64,000 nucleotides of DNA from Eledone cirrhosa (taxonomy: Eukaryota): NCBI GenBank assembly GCA_964016885.1, contig OZ024747.1, forward strand, positions 2,542,001 to 2,606,000, written 5' to 3'. Numbering within the stretch: the first letter of the stretch is position 1; every line of letters starts with the position of its first letter. The position numbers were made by a program, and so were the translations under genes. The notes beneath the pieces are model-generated. The model had not been told where the DNA came from. It saw only the letters and a list, made by a program, of their open reading frames with translations, and ran no database searches. Shown piece by piece: positions 10,740 through 55,291 of this stretch.

Positions 10740-11973
10740 ATCATCATCATCATCATCATCATCATTGTTAGCATGGGTTTGGACGGGAATTTTCCCACTT
10801 GAGGCAAGATTGGTTGTCTTTCTCATATAGGACTGTCTAGCGGGTTTTCTACGGCTGGATGCCCTTCCTAACACCAACCACGTTTACAGTGTGGACTGGG
10901 AGGTTTTTACCGTGTTACCTACACGGCCACATTACAGTGTGGACTGTGTTTTTTTGTCGTGACACCTACACGACCTCATTTATTTCGGACTGGATGTTGT
11001 GGTACCAACATAACGTATATTACTATTACACATCCAACGGAGCATGCAAGCTTCGTTCCTCTCCAGTCTGCGTATACCCTCTGCACACAATGCCCAAGGC
11101 TCACTGCCATGTAACATTGTTGTTTGTATGCAGGCATCATACAGCCTGCCTTTCATTTTTAGAGAGAAATCTTTAGCGGCCAATAGTGGTATAAGCACTC
11201 TGAACTTTTTCCATCCCGTTCTGACTCTAGCTACTGTACTTTCAGAGCACCCTCCACCACTGCTGATTTTGTCACCCAGGTAACGGAAGGTGTCCACTAT
11301 TTCTATAGAACCATCTGTGCAATGGAATGAGCTAGTATTCTGTGGGCTCTTGCTGCTACTTTTTGCACCTGAGCACCGGCCACATATAAAATCTATATTC
11401 TTAGTTAGCTTACCTGTGATCCCACTACATCTTTTATGCACCCATACTTTGCATTTGGGACATAAAATGGAGTTTCTGCCTATTCCTTTCCTACACACTG
11501 AGCATGGCCATTTCCCAGATGGGACCAGTGCCCTATTTTCCTTCCTACAAACTAGAACTTTAGTCTTAGACAGGTTAATTTTAAGGCCTTTTGATTCTAG
11601 GCCATGCTTCCATGTTTGGAATTTCTTCTCTAGTTCAGCCATTGATTCAGCTATGAGCGTTAGATCATCTGCGTATAGGAGTTCCCATGGGCAGCCGGTC
11701 TTGAACTCCTCTGTTATAGCCTGAAGGGCAATAATAAATAGGAGGGGGCTAAGGACTGAGCCCTGATGAACACCAACTTTTATGCTAAACTCTTCACTAT
11801 ATTCGTTGTTAATTCTAACCTTGCTGACTGTTTCTTTATACATGGCCTGTATACCTCTCACAAGCCATTCATCTACACCTAGTTTTCTAAAAGCCCACCA
11901 GATAATGGAGCAGGGGACTCTGTCAAAGGTTTTTTCCAGGTCTACAAAAGCTAAGTTGAGGGGTTTACTTTTT
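10740..11973 (-). mobile_element. 5'-truncated RTE-type LINE (RT fragment, ORF 10980-11861), internally deleted near 11012
   Basis: [24 protein letters not shown] motifs; [13 protein letters not shown] upstream; (GAT)n tail. Confidence 0.92.
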
Positions 11974-12059
11974 ATTAAATAAAATATTAAATAAAATGAA
12001 GATGGTTTTTATAACCATAATTCTATTATAAAATAATTCATTATCCTTATTCTAAATCT

Positions 12060-19505: not shown

Positions 19506-20585
19506 AAGAATTATTTAATGTATCCATCCCTTTCTGTTAAAAATGGTAGTGTGCTATAGGAGGAAGATATGGCTGCTATAGGAGGAAGATATGGCTGCTA
19601 TATACACTAGTTTAAGTGAATATTAGAGTATGTGGGACTATGTTATCAATTGTGCCTGTCCCAATTCTTAAACCAAAATTCTCAATAGAACAATAAGTGC
19701 TTAACCATTTAATGTTTATTTTAAATGATCAACAAGATCTCAGACCTCATTCACTTACTGACTGAATGGAACTGAGGGGTGGAACTTGTCAAATTGGACC
19801 AAAGAAACAATGTTTCCATTGGTCTTTCCATTGCTGATACTATCTACCAGTTGCAACTCCTGGCAGAAAGAGCAACATGTGTCCTGCTCAAGAACATAAA
19901 ACATCCCCAGCTGGTTGCAAGCAGTCAGACCAGTTCACCAGTTTGAGGATATCTTTCTCTCTCTCAACTGTATTGGAGGCCTTGAGAAGGGTACACTGCT
20001 TTTCCCTCCCTGACTAAACTGTCAAAATAAGAAATAAATGTTGAGAAATACTAATTTTTATCTCTTTAGTTTCATATCTTAACTAACTTGTTGATAAATA
20101 AATGGTAATTAAAATTCCAAACTTCCCTTCTTCTAAGTCTTTAAATTAACTTTGGGCAAATAATTCTTAATTTCTATAAATTATCTTCCATTTTCCTCTG
20201 AGAGTTACTAACAATTGCAGGTAGGTTTTGTATGCTTTCTACATCTAATGGAAAATTTTAATTAAGAATCTTTTTTAGATATGGCATTCAGTACAATCAC
20301 CCTTTAACATATTTATCTAGTCATGTCACTGGGCTATTTGAGTCATCTCCCTTAACACATTTTATTTCAATTATCTAAGAAATTATTAATTATACTGTAT
20401 TGTTTTATTGGTTTCATTATTGGATTTCAACAATTCTGGGACAACTCATCCATGGTTATTCAATATCAGGCTTAATAAGGCAGGTACTTGTTTTATCTAT
20501 ATCTATTTCTCAAATGGCTGAGTTACAATTTCATATAATTGCATCAGTATATGCAAACACACACACACACACACATATATATGTA

Positions 20586-20655
<70 letters not shown>

Positions 20656-20706
20656 TATATATATATTATATATATTATATATATATATATATATAAATAT
20701 ATATAT
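19506..20706. repeat. Left arm of a ~1.1-1.2-kb inverted duplication
   Basis: Reverse complement of 22200-23316 with only scattered substitutions and different (CA)/(TA) tract lengths. Confidence 0.95.
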
Positions 20707-20921
20707 ATATTGTTATACTTTGGGAGGGTCATGTTGCCAATAAGAAACACACGCACCAGTTGCTTTGACTTCAATTTATTATATATTTATAAATTTATAA
20801 ATTTACAAATTTACAAACTTATAAATTTCTGGTTGGTTGGTTGGTTCCACAACCAGATAGTTGTTTATATATAGTCATAGTCCTTTCGTCACACACTCTG
20901 TGACCTCTTTAGTGAATGGGA
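20707..20921 (-). mobile_element. Inverted pseudo-LTR (pLTR) of a Penelope-like element
   Basis: Reverse complement of 21930-22144; HHR core mutated to CUAAAGA. Confidence 0.85.
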
Positions 20922-21588
20922 AAAAATGGTAAATAATGACATAAATGGGACCTGCCCCTAGTATAGGAGCAAATTTTGGAATAGAATAGAAAGAACTAGG
21001 AACAAGGCCAATAGAATAAACTCATGGTATGATAGCAATAAATACCAGAGTGTAATGTTCATCAATACAACCCCTAGAGGCGAACTAGCCTACAAATTTA
21101 GAAGGGCCCTAAATAAACATAATCTCAATATTAAGATAGTAGAAAGACCTGGTACCTCCGTAAAAACACTTATTAGCAAGACATACCCATTCCAAAGACC
21201 CTCATGTATAGATAAGAAATGTATAACCTGTAAAATAAGCCCCCATATTAACTGTAAAACTAGAAATGTAGTGTATAGCATAAGATGTACTGAAGGACAA
21301 TGTAGAAACAAAAATATAGTGTACATAGGTGAGACAGCTCGTAGTATAGGGGAACGAATAAATGAACACTGGCGAGACCTCCAAGATAATAAAGAATCAT
21401 CTGTGCTCTACCAACATGCTAAGATAGAACACAGGGGTAGATTAGAGACCATAGAAATAAAAATAGAATCCACACACAGAAAAGACGCAATGTTTAGGCA
21501 AATTACAGAGGCAGTAAGCATAAAAGAATTAAAACCAAAATTAAATAGAAAATATGAGTGGAACAGCAACATCACAACTTACAATTAA
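20914..21588 (+). pseudogene. Penelope-like retroelement ORF C-terminus: Cys-rich linker plus GIY-YIG endonuclease; 5'-truncated, in-frame TAG at 20959
   Basis: CIDKKCITC...NCKTRNVVYSIRC...VYIGETARSIGERINEH...QH...R.ITEAVSI...PKLN are GIY-YIG signatures of PLEs. Confidence 0.88.
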
Positions 21589-21760
21589 GGACAAAATGAA
21601 AACACACACACACATAGAACAAACAACTTACAATTAAGGACAAAATGAAAACACACACACACATAGAACAAACAACTTACAATTAAGGACAAAATGAAAA
21701 CACACACAAAATGAAAACACACACAGGACAAAATGAAAACACACACACACATAGAACAAA
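21574..21760 (+). repeat. ~49-bp tandem repeat (~3 copies) in the PLE 3' UTR
   Basis: acaacttacaattaaggacaaaatgaaaacacacacacacatagaacaa repeated. Confidence 0.85.
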
Positions 21761-21929
21761 CAACCAACCAACAATAAATAAATAAATAAATAAACAAATA
21801 GATAAATGAACACAAACACACACAGACACCCGGATGTGGCGCATACGCAAACTGAGCACACAACACACACACAGAAACAAAATGGCGTAGGATAGAAGAA
21901 AGGAAAGGCTCAGAAACGAAGAAAGGAAT

Positions 21930-22199
21930 CCCCAGTCACTGAAGAGGTCACAGAGTGTGTGACGAAAGGACTATGACTATATATAAACAACTATCTGGTT
22001 GTGGAACCAACCAACCAACCAGAAATTTATAAGTTTGTAAATTTGTAAATTTATAAATTTATAAATATATAATAAATTGAAGTGAAAGCAACTGGTGCGT
22101 GTGTTTCTTATTGGCAACATGACCCTCCCAAAGTATAACAATATCGGTTTCAACACACGATTTCAGATAAAGAATCTTGCTAAACAAATTCAGAAACGA
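21930..22199 (+). mobile_element. Penelope-like pLTR plus a tail that probably encodes the ORF start ([27 protein letters not shown])
   Basis: Pairs with the inverted copy at 20707-20921; the tail recurs independently at 34612-34683. Confidence 0.8.
21934..21978 (+). ncRNA. Minimal type I hammerhead ribozyme candidate
   Basis: agtca-CTGAAGA-g-gtcac(agagtgt)gtgac-GAAA-ggac-TA-tgact: stem I agtca/tgact, stem II gtcac/gtgac, minimal stem III. Confidence 0.7.
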
Positions 22200-23316
22200 A
22201 ATATATATATATTTATATATATATATATATATATACATATATACATATATATATATGTGTGTGTGTTTGCATATACTGATGCAATTATATGAAATTGTAA
22301 CTCAGCCATTTGAGAAATAGATATAGATAAAACAAGTACCTGCCTTATTAAGCCTGATATTGAATAACCATGGATGAGTTGTCCCAGAATTGTTGAAATC
22401 CAATAATGAAACCAATAAAACAATACAGTATAATTAATATTTTCTTAGATAATTGAAATAAAATGTGTTAAGGGAGATGACTCAAATAGCCCAGTGACAT
22501 GACTAGATAAATATGTTAAAGGGTGATTGTACTGAATGCCATATCTAAAAAAGATTCTAATTAAAATTTTCCATTAGATGTAGAAAGCATACAAAACCTA
22601 CCTGCAATTGTTAGTAACTCTCAGAGGAAAATGGAAGATAATTTATAGAAATTAAGAATTATTTGCCCAAAGTTAATTTAAAGACTTAGAAGAAGGGAAG
22701 TTTGGAATTTTAATTACCATTTATTTATCAACAAGTTAGTTAAGATATGAAACTAAAGAGATAAAAATTAGTATTTCTCAACATTTATTTCTTATTTTGT
22801 CAGTTTAGTCAGGGAGGGAAAAGCAGTGTACCCTTCTCAAGGCCTCCAATACAGTTGAGAGAGAGAAAGATATCCTCAAACTGGTGAACTGGTCTGACTG
22901 CTTGCAACCAGCTGGGGATGTTTTATGTTCTTGAGCAGGACACATGTTGCTCTTTCTGCCAGGAGTTGCAACTGGTAGATAGTATCAGCAATGGAAAGAC
23001 CAATGGAAACATTGTTTCTTTGGTCCAATTTGACAAGTTCCACCCCTCAGTTCCATTCAGTCAGTAAGTGAATGAGGTCTGAGATCTTGTTGATCATTTA
23101 AAATAAACATTAAATGGTTAAGCACTTATTGTTCTATTGAGAATTTTGGTTTAAGAATTGGGACAGGCACAATTGATAACATAGTCCCACATACTCTAAT
23201 ATTCACTTAAACTAGTGTATATAGCAGCCATATCTTCCTCCTATAGCAACCATATCTTCCTCCTATAGCACACTACCATTTTTAACAGAAAGGGATGAAT
23301 ACATTAAATAATTCTT
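22200..23316. repeat. Right arm of the inverted duplication
   Basis: Reverse complement of 19506-20700. Confidence 0.95.
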
Positions 23317-23420
23317 ATGTTTGAAACTGATTTATATATATATATATATATATATATCAAGCCCTCTTTGGATTTTAGTCTTCAAATTTATTATTATTAC
23401 TATATATATATATATATATA

Positions 23421-24781: not shown

Positions 24782-25415
24782 ATGTGTGTGTATAAATATA
24801 TATATATATACAGAGAAAGAGAGAGATTTAGTACACTAGCAATGGTGTTATTTCAGTACAATTGTTTCTCTGGCTGGCTATTGTAGATTTCCACTGGGAC
24901 AGATCCCGGATCATCAGCCTGTTATTCAATTACTAATACTTATGTACCTTTCCTTCACATGTAAAAGTGTTCCAAAAGAAAACAAAGAGTAATCAATATA
25001 CAGGAGGGAGATGTATTATATAGAGAGATTAATGAAAAGCAAGGGAACTAACTTAGTAGTTGAGGAATAGTTAGATATAGTTTATGAAGATCAGAGGGTG
25101 CTAACTATTGTAGGGTCCACATGAAGAAGAAATAAGGAGAAATATTTATGACCTGATTTATAGAGGTGGATCCACGTGGAAATATATAGGTGATAGCTGT
25201 GTTCAGTAAATAACATCCATGCTATTTATGACATTACCTTCAGGTCTTTAGTAGATCATATCTTACTTTTATACTTATTTTATCAATCTCTGTTGTTGAA
25301 CCACTAAGTTATAGGACACAATGGAGCACAATATTAACAACACCAGTTTTTAGATTTGTGTAAATATAAGCTTAGACACATAAATATATATATATACAGG
25401 ATTTGATTTTTAACC

Positions 25416-25715
25416 AGTTGTTGTTGAGCACTAGATCATAACTAATTGAGTTGTTGTTGAGCACTAGATCATAACTAATTGAGTTGTTGTTGAGCACTAG
25501 ATCATAACTAATTGAGTTGTTGTTGAGCACTAGATCATAACTAATTGAGTTTTTGTTGAGCACTAGATCAGAACTAATTGAGTTGTTGTTGAGCACTAGA
25601 TCAGAACTAATTGAGTTGTTGTTGAGCACTAGATCAGAACTAATTGAGTTGTTGTTGAGCACTAGATCAGAACTAATTGAGTTTTTGTTGAGCACTAGAT
25701 CAGAACTAATTGAGC
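25416..25715. repeat. 33-bp minisatellite, ~9 units
   Basis: gagcactagatca(t/g)aactaattgagttgttgtt; 11-aa period in the spurious ORF. Confidence 0.95.
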
Positions 25716-26416
25716 AGACCTATAATCATAATCGCTCATGATCCACAGATATGGCTTTCCTTTCTAAGAAAATAAGGTGCAATTTGATTGACTTTCAGTT
25801 AGTATTTTATCAGGTCGAGTTACAATATAGAGGTACCCTTACTATAGTAGTTAGTAATTGAGAAACAAGTAATTGTAGTTAGTAGTTAGTAAATGACAGA
25901 CAAATAATTGTGATTTGTTTTCTTGTTTACTTAAAAGATGTAATAGTCTTTTTAACAAATCTTTTTATTGATTAGTTTCAGCAGGTGAGAGTTGGTATTT
26001 AATATATAGAATAGTAAACTTATTTGTGATTATTCTTGATAGCGAGCCATTGTAATTGTCTGCTTAAAACAAATTATCTCTATTAGTGCTTCCAAGCCAT
26101 TGCTGTGAAAATATGATACTATTTAAATTAAAATTGTTTGTTTGAGTTAGTGACTATTCTTTAGAATTTGAAGTATTTTGCAATAGAAGTATTTATTATT
26201 ATGACAAAAATGTATAATTATGAAAACTTCATTTTGCAAAAGTTTCATTCTCATAATTGAGCAATTGTTATTAGAACTTAACATAGAATTCAACCATTTT
26301 ATAGAAAAAATGCAGCATCATCATCATCAATATAAATTAATATAATTATTCATCTGCACATAGAAACATATATATAATATATATACATATAATATATATA
26401 CATATATATATATATT

Positions 26417-40755: not shown

Positions 40756-40950
<195 letters not shown>

Positions 40951-41096
40951 CTGTGTGTTAGAATTGGTGCTCTGAAATAGCGATGTATATATGAATGTAT
41001 ATATAGTGTATTTTGCAATACACTGTATGCTTAATTAAAAGCATTTTGAAGACCTTACTCTATTGTTTTAAAGTAGTGACTATGTCACTTACTTCT

Positions 41097-41188
41097 TTTT
41101 TCAGCAAACAAAGGGAGATAAGCTGACAGATCTCTGTTTCGTACTGTTGGTACTCCTCAGAGCTTACCACTCCCTTTGCCTGCTGAAA
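41097..41188 (-). ncRNA. Type I hammerhead ribozyme (minus-strand copy)
   Basis: Reverse complement of the plus copy; intact core; predicted GUC cleavage between 41125 and 41124. Confidence 0.88.
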
Positions 41189-41277
41189 ATTATGAATATT
41201 GGATTCTTATAGAATTCCAGTAATAATCAGGAACTGATTATACAGAGCGGTTGCCAATAAGAATCCAATATTCATAA

Positions 41278-41369
41278 TTTTCAGCAGGCAAAGGGAGTGC
41301 TAAGCTCTGAGGAGTACCAACAGTACGAAACAGAGATCTGTCAGCTTATCTCCCTTTGTTTGCTGAAAA
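41278..41369 (+). ncRNA. Type I hammerhead ribozyme, canonical, with extended stem I
   Basis: taagct-CTGAGGA-gtac(caaca)gtac-GAAA-cag(agat)ctg-TC-agctta; stem I extends cagcaggcaaagggag/ctccctttgtttgctg past a small internal loop; GUC at 41340-41342. Confidence 0.92.
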
Positions 41370-41453
41370 AAGAAGTAAGTGACATAGTCACTACTTTAAA
41401 ACAATAGAGTAAGGTCTTCAAAATGCTTTTAAGCATACAGTGTATTGCAAAAT

Positions 41454-41460
41454 ATGTATA

Positions 41461-41501
<41 letters not shown>

Positions 41502-41524
41502 GTATATATATATATATATTTATG

Positions 41525-41619
<95 letters not shown>

Positions 41620-41680
41620 ATATATATATATATGTATATATATGTATATGTATATGTATGTATATGTATATATATATTTA
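41454..41680. repeat. (TA)n-rich microsatellite
   Basis: Direct reading. Confidence 0.95.
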
Positions 41681-43899
41681 TTTATTTTAAACTGCAAGCT
41701 AGTAATCTACCAGATTTTTTTCTCCACAACACATCACCTGTATTTCAATTATTACTGTTAACTAACTTAATGTCTGAATTTCTAATTAAATTCTTCCCTG
41801 CTAACTCTAACAACACTAATGGTAATTTATTGAGGTTATATTTATATAGTCAATGACTAGCATTAAATTACAATGTATTCTACTGGACTTATTTTCAAAT
41901 CTTCATAAATGCTATCTCTATTATGTATGCAATTTATTTATGATTCTTTTATTTTGTGTCCACTTCCTTTATCTCTGAGGTAGCCTCTACATTCAATTTT
42001 CCCACCTCTATTGTAAAAAGGCTGTGTTAGTAAAATGATAAAAAGCACCCAGTCCATGCTGGAAATGTGGTTGGCATAGGGAAGGGCATCCAAACAGAAA
42101 CAGTTTTGTATGATCTGACTCATCTTACAATGGGACAACTTGTCTAACCCATGCTACCATGGTAAAATGGATGTTAAACTGGTTGTGGTGATGGTGATGG
42201 TGATTCAGCATGACACAGGGTGGGACAAGGCTGGCTTTTTGAATTACAGATAAAGATGTTTGGATAACGTACATAAGCTTAGCTGGTCTCGCTTGGGGAT
42301 CCAGCCGGATCAGTTGAAAACAGTTGCTTCTGACAGGACCCACTAGAAGGAGTGTTTGAGGAATCTACCCCTATGACCCTCTCAAACAAGTGGGCGAAGA
42401 AGAAGGTAAATTTCATCGTTTGAAACAATTTCAACCTACCCAATTTTACTGATACGGTTTGGAACAAATGGAAGCTATGATAAAAATCCCTTGTTCAATA
42501 TGCCATATAGTATCACTTGTTCAATATGCCATATAGTATCACTTGTTCAATATGCCATATAGTAGGTTTGAAACTGTAACCTGATGGTTGAGAAGCAAAC
42601 TTCTTAACTATTTGGTCATATTGCATCTTATCTCTCTATATCATAAATGAATCAAACAGACATGCTGTCTAAATCACGAACTTATCATGCAATTGCTTTA
42701 TCACCATGCTCCCAAAGTATTTTTTCTAACACATCATCTCTGTTAAATTCTACTGCTTTGTTTTTCACTCTCTGCCACTATCTTAATGTTTGCACAGCTT
42801 GGGTCATACAAACTGAGCTGTTATCACATTTGAAACTAAACAGTTATCCACATACTACAATCCTTCAAGGGTTGTTGTGTTACCCTCAGAGATATTACTC
42901 CTGTATTTTTTTTTTCAGTTTTGTATTAATGTCGAAATGTTTAAAGGTTAAGAATTGTTACATTGTTGCTGTTGACATTGTTGTCGATATTGGTACTACT
43001 GTTGTTGTTGTTATTGTTGATACTGATACTACTGGTGTTGTTGATATTATTGTTGTTGTTGTTGTCACTGTTGTTGTTGTTTACCCTAAGTGGCTAATTA
43101 CTACCACACTGTCCCTTTCTTCGTGATATTCTACTCTGCAAAAATAAAGAAAATATAAAAAAAAAACACACACAAATCTATAAATGATATCAAAATATAT
43201 AACTTTAACATAAAAAAGTAAACTAGAACCGACCATAAGAGACAAAAAGCAAGCAATTCCATTAAGCAATGGCTGGTATCTTTGCTTGCTGCTTTAAAAC
43301 CAATATAAATTGTTTCCTAAGCTTATCAATAATTGTTTATTTTTTCATGTCTGCAGTATTGCACTGACAACTGGTTTCAACTTTATTGATTGAATCCCAT
43401 AAAAAATCCATTTGGATAATCCAACAGCCTATATTAGCGAATCCATTTCAGTTCCTGTAATGCCATTTTCAGCCATTAGCTAGTTTTACTTCTTTGACAC
43501 TTCGTTGCTGCCCAAAGCATCTGTATCTTTACCCTGTTTCATTTCTCGCAGCTGTGCTAATATTATACCTTCTCTGGCTGATCAAACCACACCACTAAAC
43601 ATACTCAGGCTTTTACCTTTTTTAAGGGATACTTTTCTATCATATGCCTTTTTATTTTTCTGCATTTTTTGTCCATATATTATTTTCTTCTTCATAGAAA
43701 AAAATCCTTTATTTTTCTCTGTGTGTAGTGATATGACCAGGTATTAATCCAAATGGGTTGGGCAAAACAACATTTTTTCACTTCTCTTCAACATAAAGGT
43801 CAGTTTGCAATGAATGCACTTCTCTTAAAATCAAATCCCCCTATATAATAAAAGAAACCCTATCATTTTCTATTTCCCAATAAACACCAATATGGATAG

Positions 43900-45091: not shown

Positions 45092-46688
45092 TCATCATCA
45101 TCATCATCACCGTTTTACGTCCGTTCTTCCACGCTAGCATGGGTTAGACGGGTTGTCCTGTTGTGGGCAGTGTCTGGTCGGCTGACCATGCCTTGCTCAT
45201 ACAGGAACTGATCTGGCTTGATTTCTACAGCTGGATGCCCTTCCTAACACCAACCTCATTTACAGTGAGTGCTGGGTGCTTTTTCGTGGCGCCTACACGT
45301 CCACTTTACAGTGTGGGCTGGGTGCTTTTTTGCCGTGGCACCTCCACGACCACCTTGCGGTGGGGGGGGGGGGGGGGCATATTGTTTATATGCTTCAGCA
45401 TGTACCCATGGGAGGTCGGGTACCCTGTATTACTGCGTGACGCCAGAAGTCACGGTCGTGTGTCATTGACTTTGAGAGGTGTAGTTGGGTAAGGTCGGCT
45501 TTTATCACCTCATCCCAAGTCATCTTGGGTCTCCCCACTCCGCGGTTTCCATCAACTTCTAGTGCTCTGCACCTTTTTATGCAGCTGTCATCCTTCATAC
45601 GCATCACATGTCCATACCAGCGTAACCGCCTCTCCTGCACGCAGCATTTGATTCCTCTTATGCTCAGTCTCTCTCTCAATTCATTTATGCTTTGTCGTTC
45701 ACGTATATTACTGTTACACATCCATCGGAGCATGCAGGCTTCGTTTCTCTCTAATCTACGTAAGTCTTCCACCTTCAGCGCCCAGGTCTCACTACCATGC
45801 AACATCGCTGTTCGGATACACGCATCATACAGTCTGCCTTTCATTCTGAGGGAGAAGCCTTTTGCAGCTAGCAGTGGTAGTAGTTCCCTAAACTTCTTCC
45901 ATCCCGTTCTTACCCTAGTTATTGTACTTTCTGAGCACCCACCTCCGTTGCTAATTCGGTCACCTAGGTAGCAGAAGCTGTCTACTGTTTCTACAGGGCC
46001 CTCCCAGAGATTGGTGGTACTTGTTTCCTGTGGCTGTTTGCTTGCTGTTTCAGCACAGCTGCTGCATGTGAATCCTACATTCTTAATTAAGCTTCCTGAG
46101 ATCCCGCTACATCTCTTGTGTACCCATTGTTTGCATTTGGGGCAAAGAATGGAGTTCCTACCTACACCTTTCCTACATACTGAGCAAGGCCATTTCCCTG
46201 AGGGGATCTGGGTTCTGTTTTCTCGTCTACTTATAAGGACCTTAGTCTTTGTCATGTTGACTTTGAGGCCCTTTCTCTCTAGTCCCTGCTTCCAGGTTTG
46301 GAATTTATTCTCTAGTTCTACCATAGATTCAGCTATGAGTGCGAGGTCATCAGCATACAGGAGTTCCCATGGGCATCCGGTCTTAAACTCCTCCGTTATT
46401 GCCTGCAGGACTATGATGAACAGGAGAGGGCTAAGAACAGAGCCCTGGTGGACCCCAACCTGTACGCTAAATTCCTCGCTATACTCATTGCTAATCCTAA
46501 CTTTGCTGACTACTCCCCTATACATGGCTTGTACCGCTTTCACAAGCCATTCATCTACTCCTAGTTTTCTAAGAGCCCACCAGATTACTGCACGTGGAAC
46601 TCTGTCAAAGGCTTTCTCAAGGTCGACAAATGCCAAGTAGAGTGGCTTACTTTTAGCTAGGTACTTTTCCTGTAATTGCCTCACAAGG
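45089..46688 (-). mobile_element. 5'-truncated RTE-type LINE with uninterrupted RT/C-terminal frame, flanked by (TA)n
   Basis: 3' UTR 45089-45394 with (GAT)n tail; coding region 45395-46688. Confidence 0.95.
45395..46688 (-). CDS. LINE reverse transcriptase, partial (~430 aa, no native start), with an embedded C4HC3 finger
   Basis: [59 protein letters not shown]; the N-terminal 57 aa of the listed ORF are microsatellite. Confidence 0.9.
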
Positions 46689-46747
46689 AATATATATATG
46701 TACATATATATATGTATATATATATATGTATATATAAATATATATAC

Positions 46748-46823
<76 letters not shown>

Positions 46824-47094
46824 ATATATATACACATACACACAAAGACAGGTCGCATATAAATATATATATATATACTTAAATATGTAGAGATATTTAT
46901 ATATGTAAAGTGTTATTAGGTTACAGTTACTATGTATATCAAGATTTGTATGTAAGTCCTTTTTAGTTGATAGTGTAAGCTAGAGAGTAAAATGGAGGAT
47001 TAGTTCTAAATAAGATGAACATGGCTAGACATCTAGAAATAGTACGGCATACTTCTTTAAATATCACCTTCATTAATATCATTTTATGTTTGTT

Positions 47095-47260
47095 TTCAAA
47101 GCTGGCATGGGTTGGATAGGTTGTTATAGTTCATGACTAAAAAAGTTGAGAGGAGCATATCTTGCGCATACATTCCTTTTTTGATATCATTTTTAAAGCT
47201 AGATGCCCTTCCTAATGCCAACCACCTTACAGAGCATACAGGATGTATTTTAGCATGGCA
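47095..47260 (-). mobile_element. RTE-type 3' UTR relic that seeds the satellite
   Basis: gctggcatgggttgga...gatgcccttcctaatgccaaccaccttacagag. Confidence 0.75.
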
Positions 47261-50200
47261 CTGGCACTACCACTTTACAGAGTGTACAGAATACATTTTA
47301 TTGTGGCACCAACACTATCACTTTACAGAGTGTACAGAATACATTTTATCGTGGGACCAACATTACCACTTTACAGAGTGTACAGAATACATTTTATTGT
47401 GGCACCAACACTACCACTTTACAGAGTGTACAGAATACATTTTATTGTGGCACCTACACTACCACTTTACAGAGTGTACAGAATACATTTTATTGTGGCA
47501 CCAACACTATCACTTTATAGAGTGTACAGAATACATTTTATCGTGGCACCAACACTATCACTTTATAGAGTGTACAGAATACATTTTATCGTGGCACCAA
47601 CACTATCACTTTACAGAGTGTACAGAATACATTTTATCGTGGCACCAACATTACCACTTTACAGAGTGTACAGAATACATTTTATTGTGGCACCAACACT
47701 ACCACTTTACAGAGTGTACAGAATACATTTTATTGTGGCACCAACACTACCACTTTACAGAGTGTACAGAATACATTTTATTGTGACACCAACATTACCA
47801 CTTTACAGAGTGTACAGAATACATTTTATTGTGGCACCAACATTACCACTTTACAGAGTGTACAGAATACATTTTATTGTGACACCAACACTACCACTTT
47901 ACAGAGTGTACAGAATACATTTTATTGTGACACCAACACTACCACTTTACAGAGTGTACAGAATACATTTTATTGTGACACCAACACTACCACTTTACAG
48001 AGTGTACAGAATACATTTTATTGTGGCACCAACATTACCACTTTACAGAGTGTACAGAATACATTTTATTGTGACACCAACATTACCACTTTACAGAGTG
48101 TACAGAATACATTTTATTGTGGCACCAACATTACCACTTTACAGAGTGTACAGAATACATTTTATTGTGACACCAACACTACCACTTTACAGAGTGTACA
48201 GAATACATTTTATTGTGACACCAACACTACCACTTTACAGAGTGTACAGAATACATTTTATTGTGGCACCAACACTACCACTTTACAGAGTGTACAGAAT
48301 ACATTTTATTGTGACACCAACACTACCACTTTACAGAGTGTACAGAATACATTTTATTGTGGCACCAACATTACCACTTTACAGAGTGTACAGAATACAT
48401 TTTATTGTGGCACCAACATTACCACTTTACAGAGTGTACAGAATACATTTTATTGTGACACCAACACTACCACTTTACAGAGTGTACAGAATACATTTTA
48501 TTGTGACACCAACACTACCACTTTACAGAGTGTACAGAATACATTTTATTGTGACACCAACACTACCACTTTACAGAGTGTACAGAATACATTTTATTGT
48601 GGCACCAACATTACCACTTTACAGAGTGTACAGAATACATTTTATTGTGGCACCAACACTACCACTTTACAGAGTGTACAGAATACATTTTATTGTGACA
48701 CCAACACTACCACTTTACAGAGTGTACAGAATACATTTTATTGTGACACCAACACTACCACTTTACAGAGTGTACAGAATACATTTTATTGTGACACCAA
48801 CACTACCACTTTACAGAGTGTACAGAATACATTTTATTGTGACATCAACACTACCACTTTACAGAGTGTACAGAATACATTTTATTGTGACACCAACACT
48901 ACCACTTTACAGAGTGTACAGAATACATTTTATTGTGGCACCAACACTACCACTTTACAGAGTGTACAGAATACATTTTATTGTGACACCAACACTACCA
49001 CTTTACAGAGTGTACAGAATACATTTTATTGTGACACCAACACTACCACTTTACAGAGTGTACAGAATACATTTTATTGTGGCACCAACACTATCACTTT
49101 ATAGAGTGTACAGAATACATTTTATCGTGGCACCAACACTATCACTTTATAGAGTGTACAGAATACATTTTATCGTGGCACCAACACTATCACTTTACAG
49201 AGTGTACAGAATACATTTTATCGTGGCACCAACATTACCACTTTACAGAGTGTACAGAATACATTTTATTGTGGCACCAACACTACCACTTTACAGAGTG
49301 TACAGAATACATTTTATTGTGGCACCAACACTACCACTTTACAGAGTGTACAGAATACATTTTATTGTGACACCAACATTACCACTTTACAGAGTGTACA
49401 GAATACATTTTATTGTGGCACCAACATTACCACTTTACAGAGTGTACAGAATACATTTTATTGTGACACCAACACTACCACTTTACAGAGTGTACAGAAT
49501 ACATTTTATTGTGACACCAACACTACCACTTTACAGAGTGTACAGAATACATTTTATTGTGACACCAACACTACCACTTTACAGAGTGTACAGAATACAT
49601 TTTATTGTGGCACCAACATTACCACTTTACAGAGTGTACAGAATACATTTTATTGTGACACCAACATTACCACTTTACAGAGTGTACAGAATACATTTTA
49701 TTGTGGCACCAACATTACCACTTTACAGAGTGTACAGAATACATTTTATTGTGACACCAACACTACCACTTTACAGAGTGTACAGAATACATTTTATTGT
49801 GACACCAACACTACCACTTTACAGAGTGTACAGAATACATTTTATTGTGGCACCAACACTACCACTTTACAGAGTGTACAGAATACATTTTATTGTGACA
49901 CCAACACTACCACTTTACAGAGTGTACAGAATACATTTTATTGTGGCACCAACATTACCACTTTACAGAGTGTACAGAATACATTTTATTGTGACACCAA
50001 CATTACCACTTTACAGAGTGTACAGAATACATTTTATTGTGGCACCAACATTACCACTTTACAGAGTGTACAGAATACATTTTATTGTGACACCAACACT
50101 ACCACTTTACAGAGTGTACAGAATACATTTTATTGTGACACCAACACTACCACTTTACAGAGTGTACAGAATACATTTTATTGTGGCACCAACACTACCA

Positions 50201-51797
50201 CTTTACAGAGTGTACAGAATACATTTTATTGTGACACCAACACTACCACTTTACAGAGTGTACAGAATACATTTTATTGTGACACCAACACTACCACTTT
50301 ACAGAGTGTACAGAATACATTTTATTGTGACACCAACACTACCACTTTACAGAGTGTACAGAATACATTTTATTGTGACACCAACACTACCACTTTACAG
50401 AGTGTACAGAATACATTTTATTGTGACACCAACATTACCACTTTACAGAGTGTACAGAATACATTTTATTGTGGCACCAACACTACCACTTTACAGAGTG
50501 TACAGAATACATTTTATTGTGACACCAACACTACCACTTTACAGAGTGTACAGAATACATTTTATTGTGACACCAACACTACCACTTTACAGAGTGTACA
50601 GAATACATTTTATTGTGGCACCAACACTACCACTTTACAGAGTGTACAGAATACATTTTATTGTGACACCAACATTACCACTTTACAGAGTGTACAGAAT
50701 ACATTTTATTGTGGCACCAACACTACCACTTTACAGAGTGTACAGAATACATTTTATTGTGACACCAACACTACCACTTTACAGAGTGTACAGAATACAT
50801 TTTATTGTGGCACCAACATTACCACTTTACAGAGTGTACAGAATACATTTTATTGTGACACCAACACTACCACTTTACAGAGTGTACAGAATACATTTTA
50901 TTGTGACACCAACACTACCACTTTACAGAGTGTACAGAATACATTTTATTGTGGCACCAACACTACCACTTTACAGAGTGTACAGAATACATTTTATTGT
51001 GACACCAACACTACCACTTTACAGAGTGTACAGAATACATTTTATTGTGACACCAACACTACCACTTTACAGAGTGTACAGAATACATTTTTTTGTGGCA
51101 CCAACACTACCACTTTACAGAGTGTACAGAATACATTTTATTGTGACACCAACATTACCACTTTACAGAGTGTACAGAATACATTTTATTGTGGCACCAA
51201 CACTACCACTTTACAGAGTGTACAGAATACATTTTATTGTGGCACGAACATTACCACTTTACTGAGTGTACAGAATACATTTTATCGTGGCACCAACATT
51301 ACCACTTTACAGAGTGTACAGAATACATTTTATTGTGGCACCAACACTACCACTTTACAGAGTGTACAGAATACATTTTATTGTGGCACCAACACTATCA
51401 CTTTACAGAGTGTACAGAATACATTTTATTGTGGCACCAACACTATCACTTTATAGAGTGTACAGAATACATTTTATTGTGGCACCAACACTACCACTTT
51501 ACAGAGTGTACAGAATACATTTTATTGTGACACCAACATTACCACTTTACAGAGTGTACAGAATACATTTTATTGTGGCACCAACATTACCACTTTACAG
51601 AGTGTACAGAATACATTTTATTGTGGCACCAACATTACCACTTTACAGAGTGTACAGAATACATTTGATTGTGACACCAACACTACCACTTTACAGAGTG
51701 TACAGAATACATTTTATTGTGGCACCAACACTACCACTTTACAGAGTGTACAGAATACATTTGATTGTGACACCAACACTACCACTTTACAGAGTGC
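47261..51797. repeat. 48-bp tandem satellite, ~94 units
   Basis: attttattgtg(g/a)caccaaca(c/t)taccactttacagagtgtacagaatac; 16-aa period in the ORF track. Confidence 0.98.
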
Positions 51798-53879
51798 AAT
51801 GGATGCATTTTGTCATGAAACAAGCACTCCTTACAAATCAACCACCTAAAGGTTGGGTGTTTGGATGTTGTCATGAGTGGACTAGGGGAGAAGTGGTGAT
51901 GGCCAACTACACAGTTGTCATTGCCGGAATAGGGGAGGATATTTGTAAGATTCGAGACAGGGGTGGGATATATATACAGAATTAGGGGTACATCTCTTTC
52001 ACATGGGCAACATTGAGCAATAAATACAGGAATAGGTAGGCGGGTATTGTTGGGGGTTTAATAAAATCTAAGATATCACTAGCTCTACGAACAAATCAGG
52101 AGATAGAACTAATAGGATAGCTGTATGTCTAAAAAGTAAGTCTATATATGTTTGTGCGAATGTGTGTATACAAGTATCTACACACATATATATATATATA
52201 ATCTTCAGGTTTTGCCTTATTTTTCTTGATTCCCAGTCTATTACACACACACACACATATATATATACACTTTAAATGTGGTTGGCGTCAGGAAGGGCAG
52301 AAACCCCCTATTTGAGCGAGACACGGTCACTCGACACAACTTGCCTTAAATTAGGACCTGTTTAACCCATGCTAGCATGGAAGATAGACGTTAATCGATG
52401 ATATATATATATATATAATGTATATAGGGTAAAGATCACCCTTCAGTCACAAGTGGAACAAGTAACAAACACACACACAAATATATATATGCATATATTA
52501 TGTGTGTATGTATTGATATACAATTGTATATGTATAGGCACATACGCATACACGCACTTACACACACACGCATGCAAGCAAAAATACAAGTTCTTTATTC
52601 TTAAGAGGATTCAAACAACACATTGTTCAGAAAGGGAGATTGTCTGCTTCAGTATCTTATAAGTAACACTTCAATATTATTTGTGTACAGACTTTCATAA
52701 AATATAGTTTTAACCTCCACATTCTTTCTCTGTGTACTTAGAGATGATGGCAACAGTGAGGAGAGTTATATTAAGACCTGTATTAAGACTTATATTAAGA
52801 CTTATATTAAGACTTATGCTAAGTAGTGAAAAATTATTAAATTGGTTCCATTTGGTTTGGTACTAATAGAAGCTTTGACAGACTTAAGATTAGAAACAAA
52901 ACAACCAAAAGCCAAATGTATAAAAGTGAGATATTCACCAGCAGTGTCATTTAAAAAGTTGACTACTTACACTTAGTACTAAGGTACTAACTTGTTTACT
53001 TTAATAGTATGTTGTAAAGGAGATATGTTGTTTTCATACTTACATGTTGAGTTCTATAGATATAGGATGGACTTTCATGCAGTCTCTGTCTACCGAACGC
53101 CATTCACAAATTCTTTGACAACCTGAAGCAACAGCAAAAAACATTTGCCCAAATTGCTGCAGAGCGGAATCAAAATTCGAGTCATATTATTGAAAACCAA
53201 ATGAAAACAAATGTGAAACACAGAAAAATACAAAGTTTACTTTTACATGTTTTATAGCTAGTTTGTTGGTCATTAGAAGACAAGTACCTTTATACTTCCA
53301 CTTATGAAAAAAGCTTATAGAAAAAAGCTATTTGTATCAAGCACATAACAGAACTTAACTGAAATGGTTGAAAAGCTGGAGGAACCAGATGACCAGATGT
53401 ATAGACAGATGTGATCACATGAAATAGAGATTAGTTTCAATCCCATTTGGGGATTTCATCAGTGGTTGATTACCCACTTTAATTGTCAATATAGACACTA
53501 TAAAGCCACTAGTATATATAAACATGGCACTATGTATGTAATGCTTTCGCTAAAACCTATGGATATATCAGGTCTAAACAGATTTGATGCCATCACTTTT
53601 ACATAACCAACGTAATGAAAGCGAGTTGTAGAAATCACAGTTACATAATGTCCTCAATACAAAGGTAGAGAAGAGATACATATTTCTTTCATGTAGAAAT
53701 GACTTATATATATATATATATATCATGGATCTGATGGTATTGTAGCGGTGCCATCCTTATATAGGGCATGTTTTGGCCATATTAAACCTCATCGAACCCA
53801 TACCTTTCCTGATCCCTCTGTCTCTCTCTCCCTATATATATATAAAGAGAGAGAGAGATGTTGATGACACACATATTTA

Positions 53880-55114: not shown

Positions 55115-55154
55115 AATTTCCCCAATTCTTCTTAAATCAATCGCTTTATATATA

Positions 55155-55230
<76 letters not shown>

Positions 55231-55291
55231 TATATATAAAGCGATTGATTTAAGAAGAATTGGGGAAATTGGTTGTGTACATGCATATGTG

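Follow-up and report, generated by a model that had tools for sequence, protein, structure and literature searches.

The locus studied here raises the question of how one piece of host DNA came to stand, in opposite orientations, on the two sides of a single retroelement insertion. An earlier note had proposed a nested palindrome with a Penelope-like element (PLE) at its centre in the window, by which we mean the whole stretch of 64,000 nucleotides that was analysed. The host looks like a cephalopod. Self-comparison and arm alignment confirmed the palindrome, with arms 99.5% alike. The host arm is called X and its mirror X′.

Layout of the palindrome and support for the assembly

The features of the locus are as follows (positions in the window).

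19506–20552, + strand: X, host DNA that carries on from the left flank, the transition being crossed by short-read contigs
near 19720–19910: old repeat fragment within X, 190 bp
20553–20709, no strand: left interrupted (CA)n(TA)n tract, candidate primer of the inverted cDNA
20707–20915, − strand: inverted 5′-truncated element copy, pLTR only, without tail, joined to the direct copy at a short imperfect microhomology
20915–22144, + strand: direct 5′-truncated copy, with the end of the RT-EN frame, the 3′ repeat region and the pLTR
20962–21588, + strand: GIY-YIG frame, passing the Pfam GIY-YIG cut-off
21934–21978, + strand: minimal hammerhead-ribozyme-type motif in the pLTR, a pattern match with core and pairing stem I
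22145–22200, + strand: tail, 56 nt, at one end only
22201–22270, no strand: right (TA)n(TG)n tract, mirroring the left tract, interruptions included
22271–23316, − strand: X′, inverted duplicate of X
23317–23358, no strand: outer junction, about 16 bp followed by (TA)13

The arms of X (19506–20552 and 22271–23316, 1047 bp) differ by four substitutions (19524, 19573, 20022 and 20383) and a 1-bp indel near 20264; the two base differences quoted in the earlier note (tatcc/tattc and ctgtc/ctgac) are both real in the alignment. The arms themselves had been seen correctly there, but the bounds given for X (19506–20700 and 22200–23316) took in the microsatellites. The inverted pLTR at 20707–20915 pairs with 21931–22144 and is 99% alike over about 210 bp, with two differing positions, 20767 and 20910, the latter beside the junction. 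The (CA)n(TA)n tracts at 20553–20709 and 22201–22270 have a common interruption pattern and unequal lengths. An AA interruption lies 11–12 nt from the junction in both tracts, and an interruption of such a kind, at any distance, occurs at 21 of 208 family junctions. Both ends of the element face outward and each adjoins the same X-(CA)n(TA)n at an equivalent position, which bears out the proposal that both were joined to the same-side flank. At one end the element sequence starts with the tail, and at the other it starts 56 nt further in; a short microhomology marks the point where the two pieces join. The tail (22145–22200) is found at the right end only, between the right pLTR and the mirror. 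X at 19506–20552 is likely the original copy and X′ the duplicate. No element DNA was found at the outer junction (23316/23317). The sequence of about 16 bp from 23317 occurs once in the genome, with no local template found as its source, and the (TA)13 is followed by part of the tail of a different PLE family and by a common repeat.

X was found at two places in the 3.0-Gb assembly, both in the window, with 40 of the 4965 candidates scored; the other listed matches, at about 80% identity, fell on the 190-bp old repeat inside X. Among these scored candidates X is single-copy host DNA apart from its mirror, in agreement with its first description as ordinary genomic sequence with old repeat debris.

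Short-read contigs from one sample, which may be the assembled individual's own, cross the junction between left flank and X unbroken in both deep runs. The right outer junction was assessed from the depth table after the listed contigs had been subtracted. A constant residue of 6.9 and 8.0 was left in runs X17 and X19, fitting a contig from 23268 to at least 23321, and no residue in run X18. The junction at 23316 is passed by sequence in two of three runs, with 5 visible bases, below the bridging rule. Both alleles at 19573 are present in short-read contigs, and contigs of runs X17 and X18 agree with the left arm at 20022 and 20264 but with the right arm at 20383; such mixed-allele contigs may represent a third, unduplicated haplotype or bubble popping. 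Neither an empty allele nor a spanning read was seen in the short-read runs, among which X1 (another species), X20 (shallow) and X21 (RAD-seq) had almost no cover of X. The structure is real in the assembly and probably real in the animal.

Elsewhere in the window, a 4.6-kb tandem array of a 48-bp unit (47221–51828), about 96% alike and with long open frames in several phases, is probably a minisatellite, and a second array, of a 33-bp unit, lies at 25350–25780. Reading frames at 10980–12008 and 45395–46912 (− strand) resemble fragments of LINE reverse transcriptase.

The inner element and its family

The family to which the inner element belongs is large and partly young: junctions with exact (TA)n number 11,813 at the tail-less end and 10,901 at the tailed end. 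Full copies have a single frame of about 1200 amino acids with an RT domain, a C-terminal GIY-YIG domain, a CX4CxxC linker and an Asn-rich N-terminal part. In the copy at L048 (3497–7216, − strand) a long Asn/His/Thr-rich stretch lies ahead of the RT, recalling the Asn-rich inserts described for rotifer Penelopes (PMC3846280). The whole 1239-residue protein of this copy had no match in the domain search; its last 667 residues match RVT_1 (E 3e-4) and GIY-YIG (E 3.5e-4), both below Pfam's cut-off.

The GIY-YIG frame of the window copy contains the linker at 21205–21231 and the nuclease core at 21274–21330. It is preceded by a stop at 20959–20961, of a kind that almost all other copies lack. Two cysteines inside the core and histidine residues downstream match the CCHH motif, which is described for EN+ PLEs with two cysteines between GIY and YIG (PMC8557442). 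The inner element is an EN+ PLE, with an ORF running from RT to GIY-YIG, a pLTR, an inverted truncated copy and an optional tail. Its motifs would make it Neptune-like (Neptune or Nematis), since the traits of these groups, a CX2-5CxxC linker ahead of the nuclease and a (TA)n bias, are both present. An Rfam search returned no hammerhead match and only microsatellite noise.

Head-to-head end pairs of the family carry a tail at one end and not at the other in 80 of the 88 surveyed. This matches the two reverse-transcription starts reported in vitro for an anole PLE, whose protein, a predicted dimer, cuts and extends both strands and whose two start sites define the tail (PMC11167929). The inner 1.5 kb of the window structure (inverted 5′-truncated copy, direct copy and one-ended tail) is an ordinary PLE insertion and, like its (TA)n target, agrees with the canonical insertions described in PMC3846280, PMC8557442 and PMC11167929. 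The flanks do not: in those accounts they normally differ or carry a short direct duplication, whereas in the window they are mirrored.

Recurrence of mirrored flanks and the palindrome background

As the earlier note had suggested, other copies were surveyed for flank inversions. We took 71 loci by likeness to the window copy, 60 in order along contig C1 and 20 as end pairs from the junction lists, together with 40 control loci. Two loci without a flank were dropped, leaving 149, of which 129 were examined by BLAST and rare-word matching and 20 by BLAST and inspection; one of the 20 end-pair loci is not a single insertion. The same flank was found at both ends, in the layout of the window, at 3 of the 149 (2%; 95% interval 0.4–5.8%), and if the sample is fair the family total would be on the order of 200 such events. 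The predicted enrichment in end pairs of the same type (tail with tail, or no tail with no tail) was seen in none of the three new insertions.

The mirrored flank is about 70 bp at L027, about 400 bp at L068 (55 bp of common repeat and a patterned microsatellite) and 270 bp at L070, where the cause is ambiguous because a second PLE is nested inside. At L027 and L068 the two flanks remain identical across interrupted microsatellites and as far as the element junction at either end. On its outer side the L068 duplicate is followed by a 7-nt filler that resembles the beginning of the duplicate itself, and then by 20 nt from the family's end, next to the far (TA)n. L015 has the layout as well, with a mirror of 1.84 kb that belongs to an older copy (arms 98% alike, with 19 substitutions to 1800 matches; the next best long matches at most 96%), but it was not counted as a flank inversion of the window family, since the mirror surrounds another family. 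L037, L053, L159, L166 and L168 were rejected because they lie within, or next to, inverted structures that belong to other PLE families. L067 had a high junction-match score but only (CA)n(TA)n in common, and L185, taken as one insertion, proved to be two separate ends.

Palindromes in general are not significantly enriched near copies. They were found within 300 non-repeat bases of 19 of 71 copies versus 7 of 42 (TA)n controls without element (p = 0.25), and at 6 of 120 random points. Nearly all of those near copies are formed by other repeat families whose inverted ends lie within the same tracts, and hammerhead-type motifs are present in many of them.

The (TA)n blocks without an element inside have a mirrored edge in 24 of 1189 cases (about 2%), a count that includes five from one array, two tail-to-tail element pairs and some low-complexity matches. 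Of the 16 of these 24 that were measured, 11 are anchored at the tract, with arms of 10–122 bp, and five are unanchored alignments. Counted over all sizes, mirrors at insertions (3/149) and at element-free blocks (24/1189) do not differ (p = 1.0); for arms of at least 250 bp the counts are 2/149 and 0/1189 (p = 0.012), a contrast weakened if the scarcity of long element-free palindromes reflects, as it may, instability or loss from the assembly when there is no spacer. The statement in the earlier note that the element would generate such duplications whichever route was taken was too strong, given a side product at about 2% of insertions, a similar rate of short fold-backs at element-free blocks, and the possible insertion of the element into an existing fold-back.

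Several smaller structures were also observed. At 55115–55270 of the window, (TA)28 forms the centre of a perfect, element-free fold-back of about 50 bp. The same (TA)n tracts as those of the window family are occupied by numerous further PLE-like families, which have tails on one side and motifs of the hammerhead type, and small palindromes of such families occur at 40758–41682 of the window, at L043 (7139–7454) and L087 (7783–8454), and at L109 and L122. At L135 (6881–7725) a mirror of about 280 bp surrounds a (TA)n-bounded fragment; one part is identical, and in the remainder 13 substitutions lie in clusters, most of them transitions (6 T>C, 4 C>T, 2 A>G and 1 C>G), for which RNA editing of a hairpin template is a possible cause. 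At L060 (377–557) alternating inverted 19-bp units, with (TA)n between them, form an array like that expected from repeated rounds of fold-back. Older palindromes are found in the window at 437–667 (91%) and 1175–1746 (71%), the latter apparently made of common short repeats.

Origin of the mirrored flank

Both ends of the window element were evidently primed by X-(CA)n(TA)n. The match continues up to the junction, as marked by the AA interruption in the window and by the tracts at L027 and L068, and therefore either two copies of one end were used or a palindrome was cut at its centre. Our main reading, to which we give a probability of about one half, is a single insertion event in which one DNA end, present in two copies on sister chromatids, supplied the primer for each of the two cDNAs, which were then joined as a fold-back. 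Sister chromatids are the most likely among the ways of obtaining two copies of a cut end, and of the options offered in the earlier note it is sister-chromatid template switching that fits best. The element's nuclease would have cut the (TA)n after replication, and the X-side 3′ end on each chromatid would have primed reverse transcription. The two cDNAs would then have been joined to give a fold-back with the element at its centre. About 1.2 kb back the second chromatid may have been broken, or copying halted, and the joining of this end to the far flank would have let a one-centromere chromosome with a small inverted duplication survive. Mirrored flanks, at about 2% of insertions, are an infrequent by-product and no programmed step.

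The main rival, though a good deal less likely, is that X-(TA)n-X′ arose earlier as a fold-back through the self-complementary (TA)n, and that its centre, as a hairpin or cruciform, afterwards became the target of the element. Such a target, cut symmetrically, would have identical ends, the window family targets (TA)n, and (TA)n-centred fold-backs with no element exist (window 55115–55270, L024, L014; the 24 of 1189 blocks), as does a 16-bp fold-back adjoining an insertion at L156. The short arms of the 11 anchored element-free cases speak against this, and so does the family's end sequence at the outer junction of L068, which favours two copies of one end over a centrally cut palindrome and suggests that the element's RT was present while the end was open. 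The ages suit either account: the four substitutions between the X arms, against five near-private changes of the element (20910 included; p = 0.31), are compatible with a single event and give no order of insertion and duplication. Less probable than this is an ordinary insertion made first, or within the same repair window: a 3′ end within the right (TA)n would have turned back and annealed to the tract on the left, been extended through X with the resected strand as template, and been rejoined to the right flank. A (TA)n strand is complementary to itself, LINE-1-linked inverted duplications have been explained by a model in which resected ends anneal to themselves (10.1101/2024.12.14.628481), and a resection of 1.2 kb is plausible. 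However, the long pure (TA)32 is where such annealing should have taken place, whereas the mirror extends over the interruption that lies 11 nt from the tail, and the flanks of L027 and L068 match right up to the junction.

We regard as improbable an assembly chimera in which one haplotype has X inverted beside the element and two haplotypes were merged through the (TA)n. The 0.4% difference between the arms could be heterozygosity, the microsatellites are spanned by no read, and contig depth over X, which is no measure of copy number, is 1.3–1.5 times that of the flank in run X17 and 1.0 times in run X18. Against it stand the unbroken passage of contigs from left flank into X in both deep runs, the same geometry at four other loci and the length of the structure, 3.8 kb in all. 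Hardly credible, finally, are repair seeded by the inverted pLTR pair, which the earlier note had offered as its second route, and the view that X is a foldback transposon's terminal inverted repeat, which that note had listed among the findings that would refute its reading. The pLTRs are indeed 99% alike over about 210 bp, but a switch inside the pLTR would lose the 56-nt tail; the tail is present between the right pLTR and the mirror, and the switch into X therefore took place outside the pLTR. Of the 4965 candidates 40 were scored, and no third copy of X was found among them; the foldback explanation is therefore removed.

For priming from two copies of one end in a single event, we count that X is single-copy but for its mirror (among the same scored candidates) and that the geometry recurs at L027, L068, L070 and L015. 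Counted against it are an all-size rate equal to that of element-free (TA)n, the failed prediction on same-type ends, the ambiguous L070 and an outer junction in the window without element DNA. In general form, which we put forward tentatively and at slightly short of even odds, PLEs prime both insertion ends, and in about 2% of insertions do so on two sister chromatids, producing heritable inverted duplications of 0.07–1.8 kb with the element as the hinge.

The nearest likeness is with the fold-back junctions that arise in tumours when a LINE-1 insert forms a head-to-head bridge between sister chromatids (Rodriguez-Martin 2020, PMC7058536; bioRxiv 10.1101/2024.12.14.628481). Common to both are a retroelement at the centre of a head-to-head duplication and the bridging or replication-fusion of sister chromatids; the same-side flank, inverted on both sides of the insert, is present in the window. 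As described in those sources, the tumour cases are somatic and involve a single insert; about 5.5 kb separates the breakpoints of the worked example, and gains on the Mb scale or breakage-fusion-bridge cycles follow. The window, in contrast, has two cDNAs at equivalent positions and a mirror that ends after 1.2 kb, where the assembled sequence continues normally; loss or translocation of the reciprocal arm and a large copy-number step were not seen in the assembled sequence, though some host DNA may have been lost at 23316. A LINE-1 insertion with a local inverted duplication of its reciprocal end (10.1101/2024.12.14.628481, Fig. 4) likewise combines a small flank duplication with target-primed insertion, but there the host DNA itself appears to make the turn, in a small hairpin, and the element lies next to the inverted pair, whereas in the window the element is the turn. 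The Dualen LINE of Chlamydomonas, of a different element class, has flank duplications of about 1 kb tied to more than half of its insertions, but these are described as resembling target-site duplications and not as mirrors (PMC9977147). No report of mirrored flanks at PLEs was found in the literature searched, judged largely by titles and abstract openings (passages of PMC13282606 included); subscription papers or supplements could hold examples.

The effect at the window locus looks neutral because no long host reading frame was found within X. Mirrored-flank PLE insertion is a recurrent but rare retroelement-linked rearrangement. The later steps of PLE integration are described as not validated (PMC11167929), and mirrored flanks reveal which DNA ends served as primers, in a family large enough for counting tests. 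If sister-chromatid priming is true, hundreds of events would be expected in this genome, with more than 10,000 insertions of the family and many similar families, and they would represent a germline, self-limiting form of the LINE-1 fold-back of cancer, as well as a direct trace of second-strand completion in PLEs, a step still unsolved. If the coupling holds, microsatellite-targeting PLEs would be a source of small inverted duplications in animal germlines.
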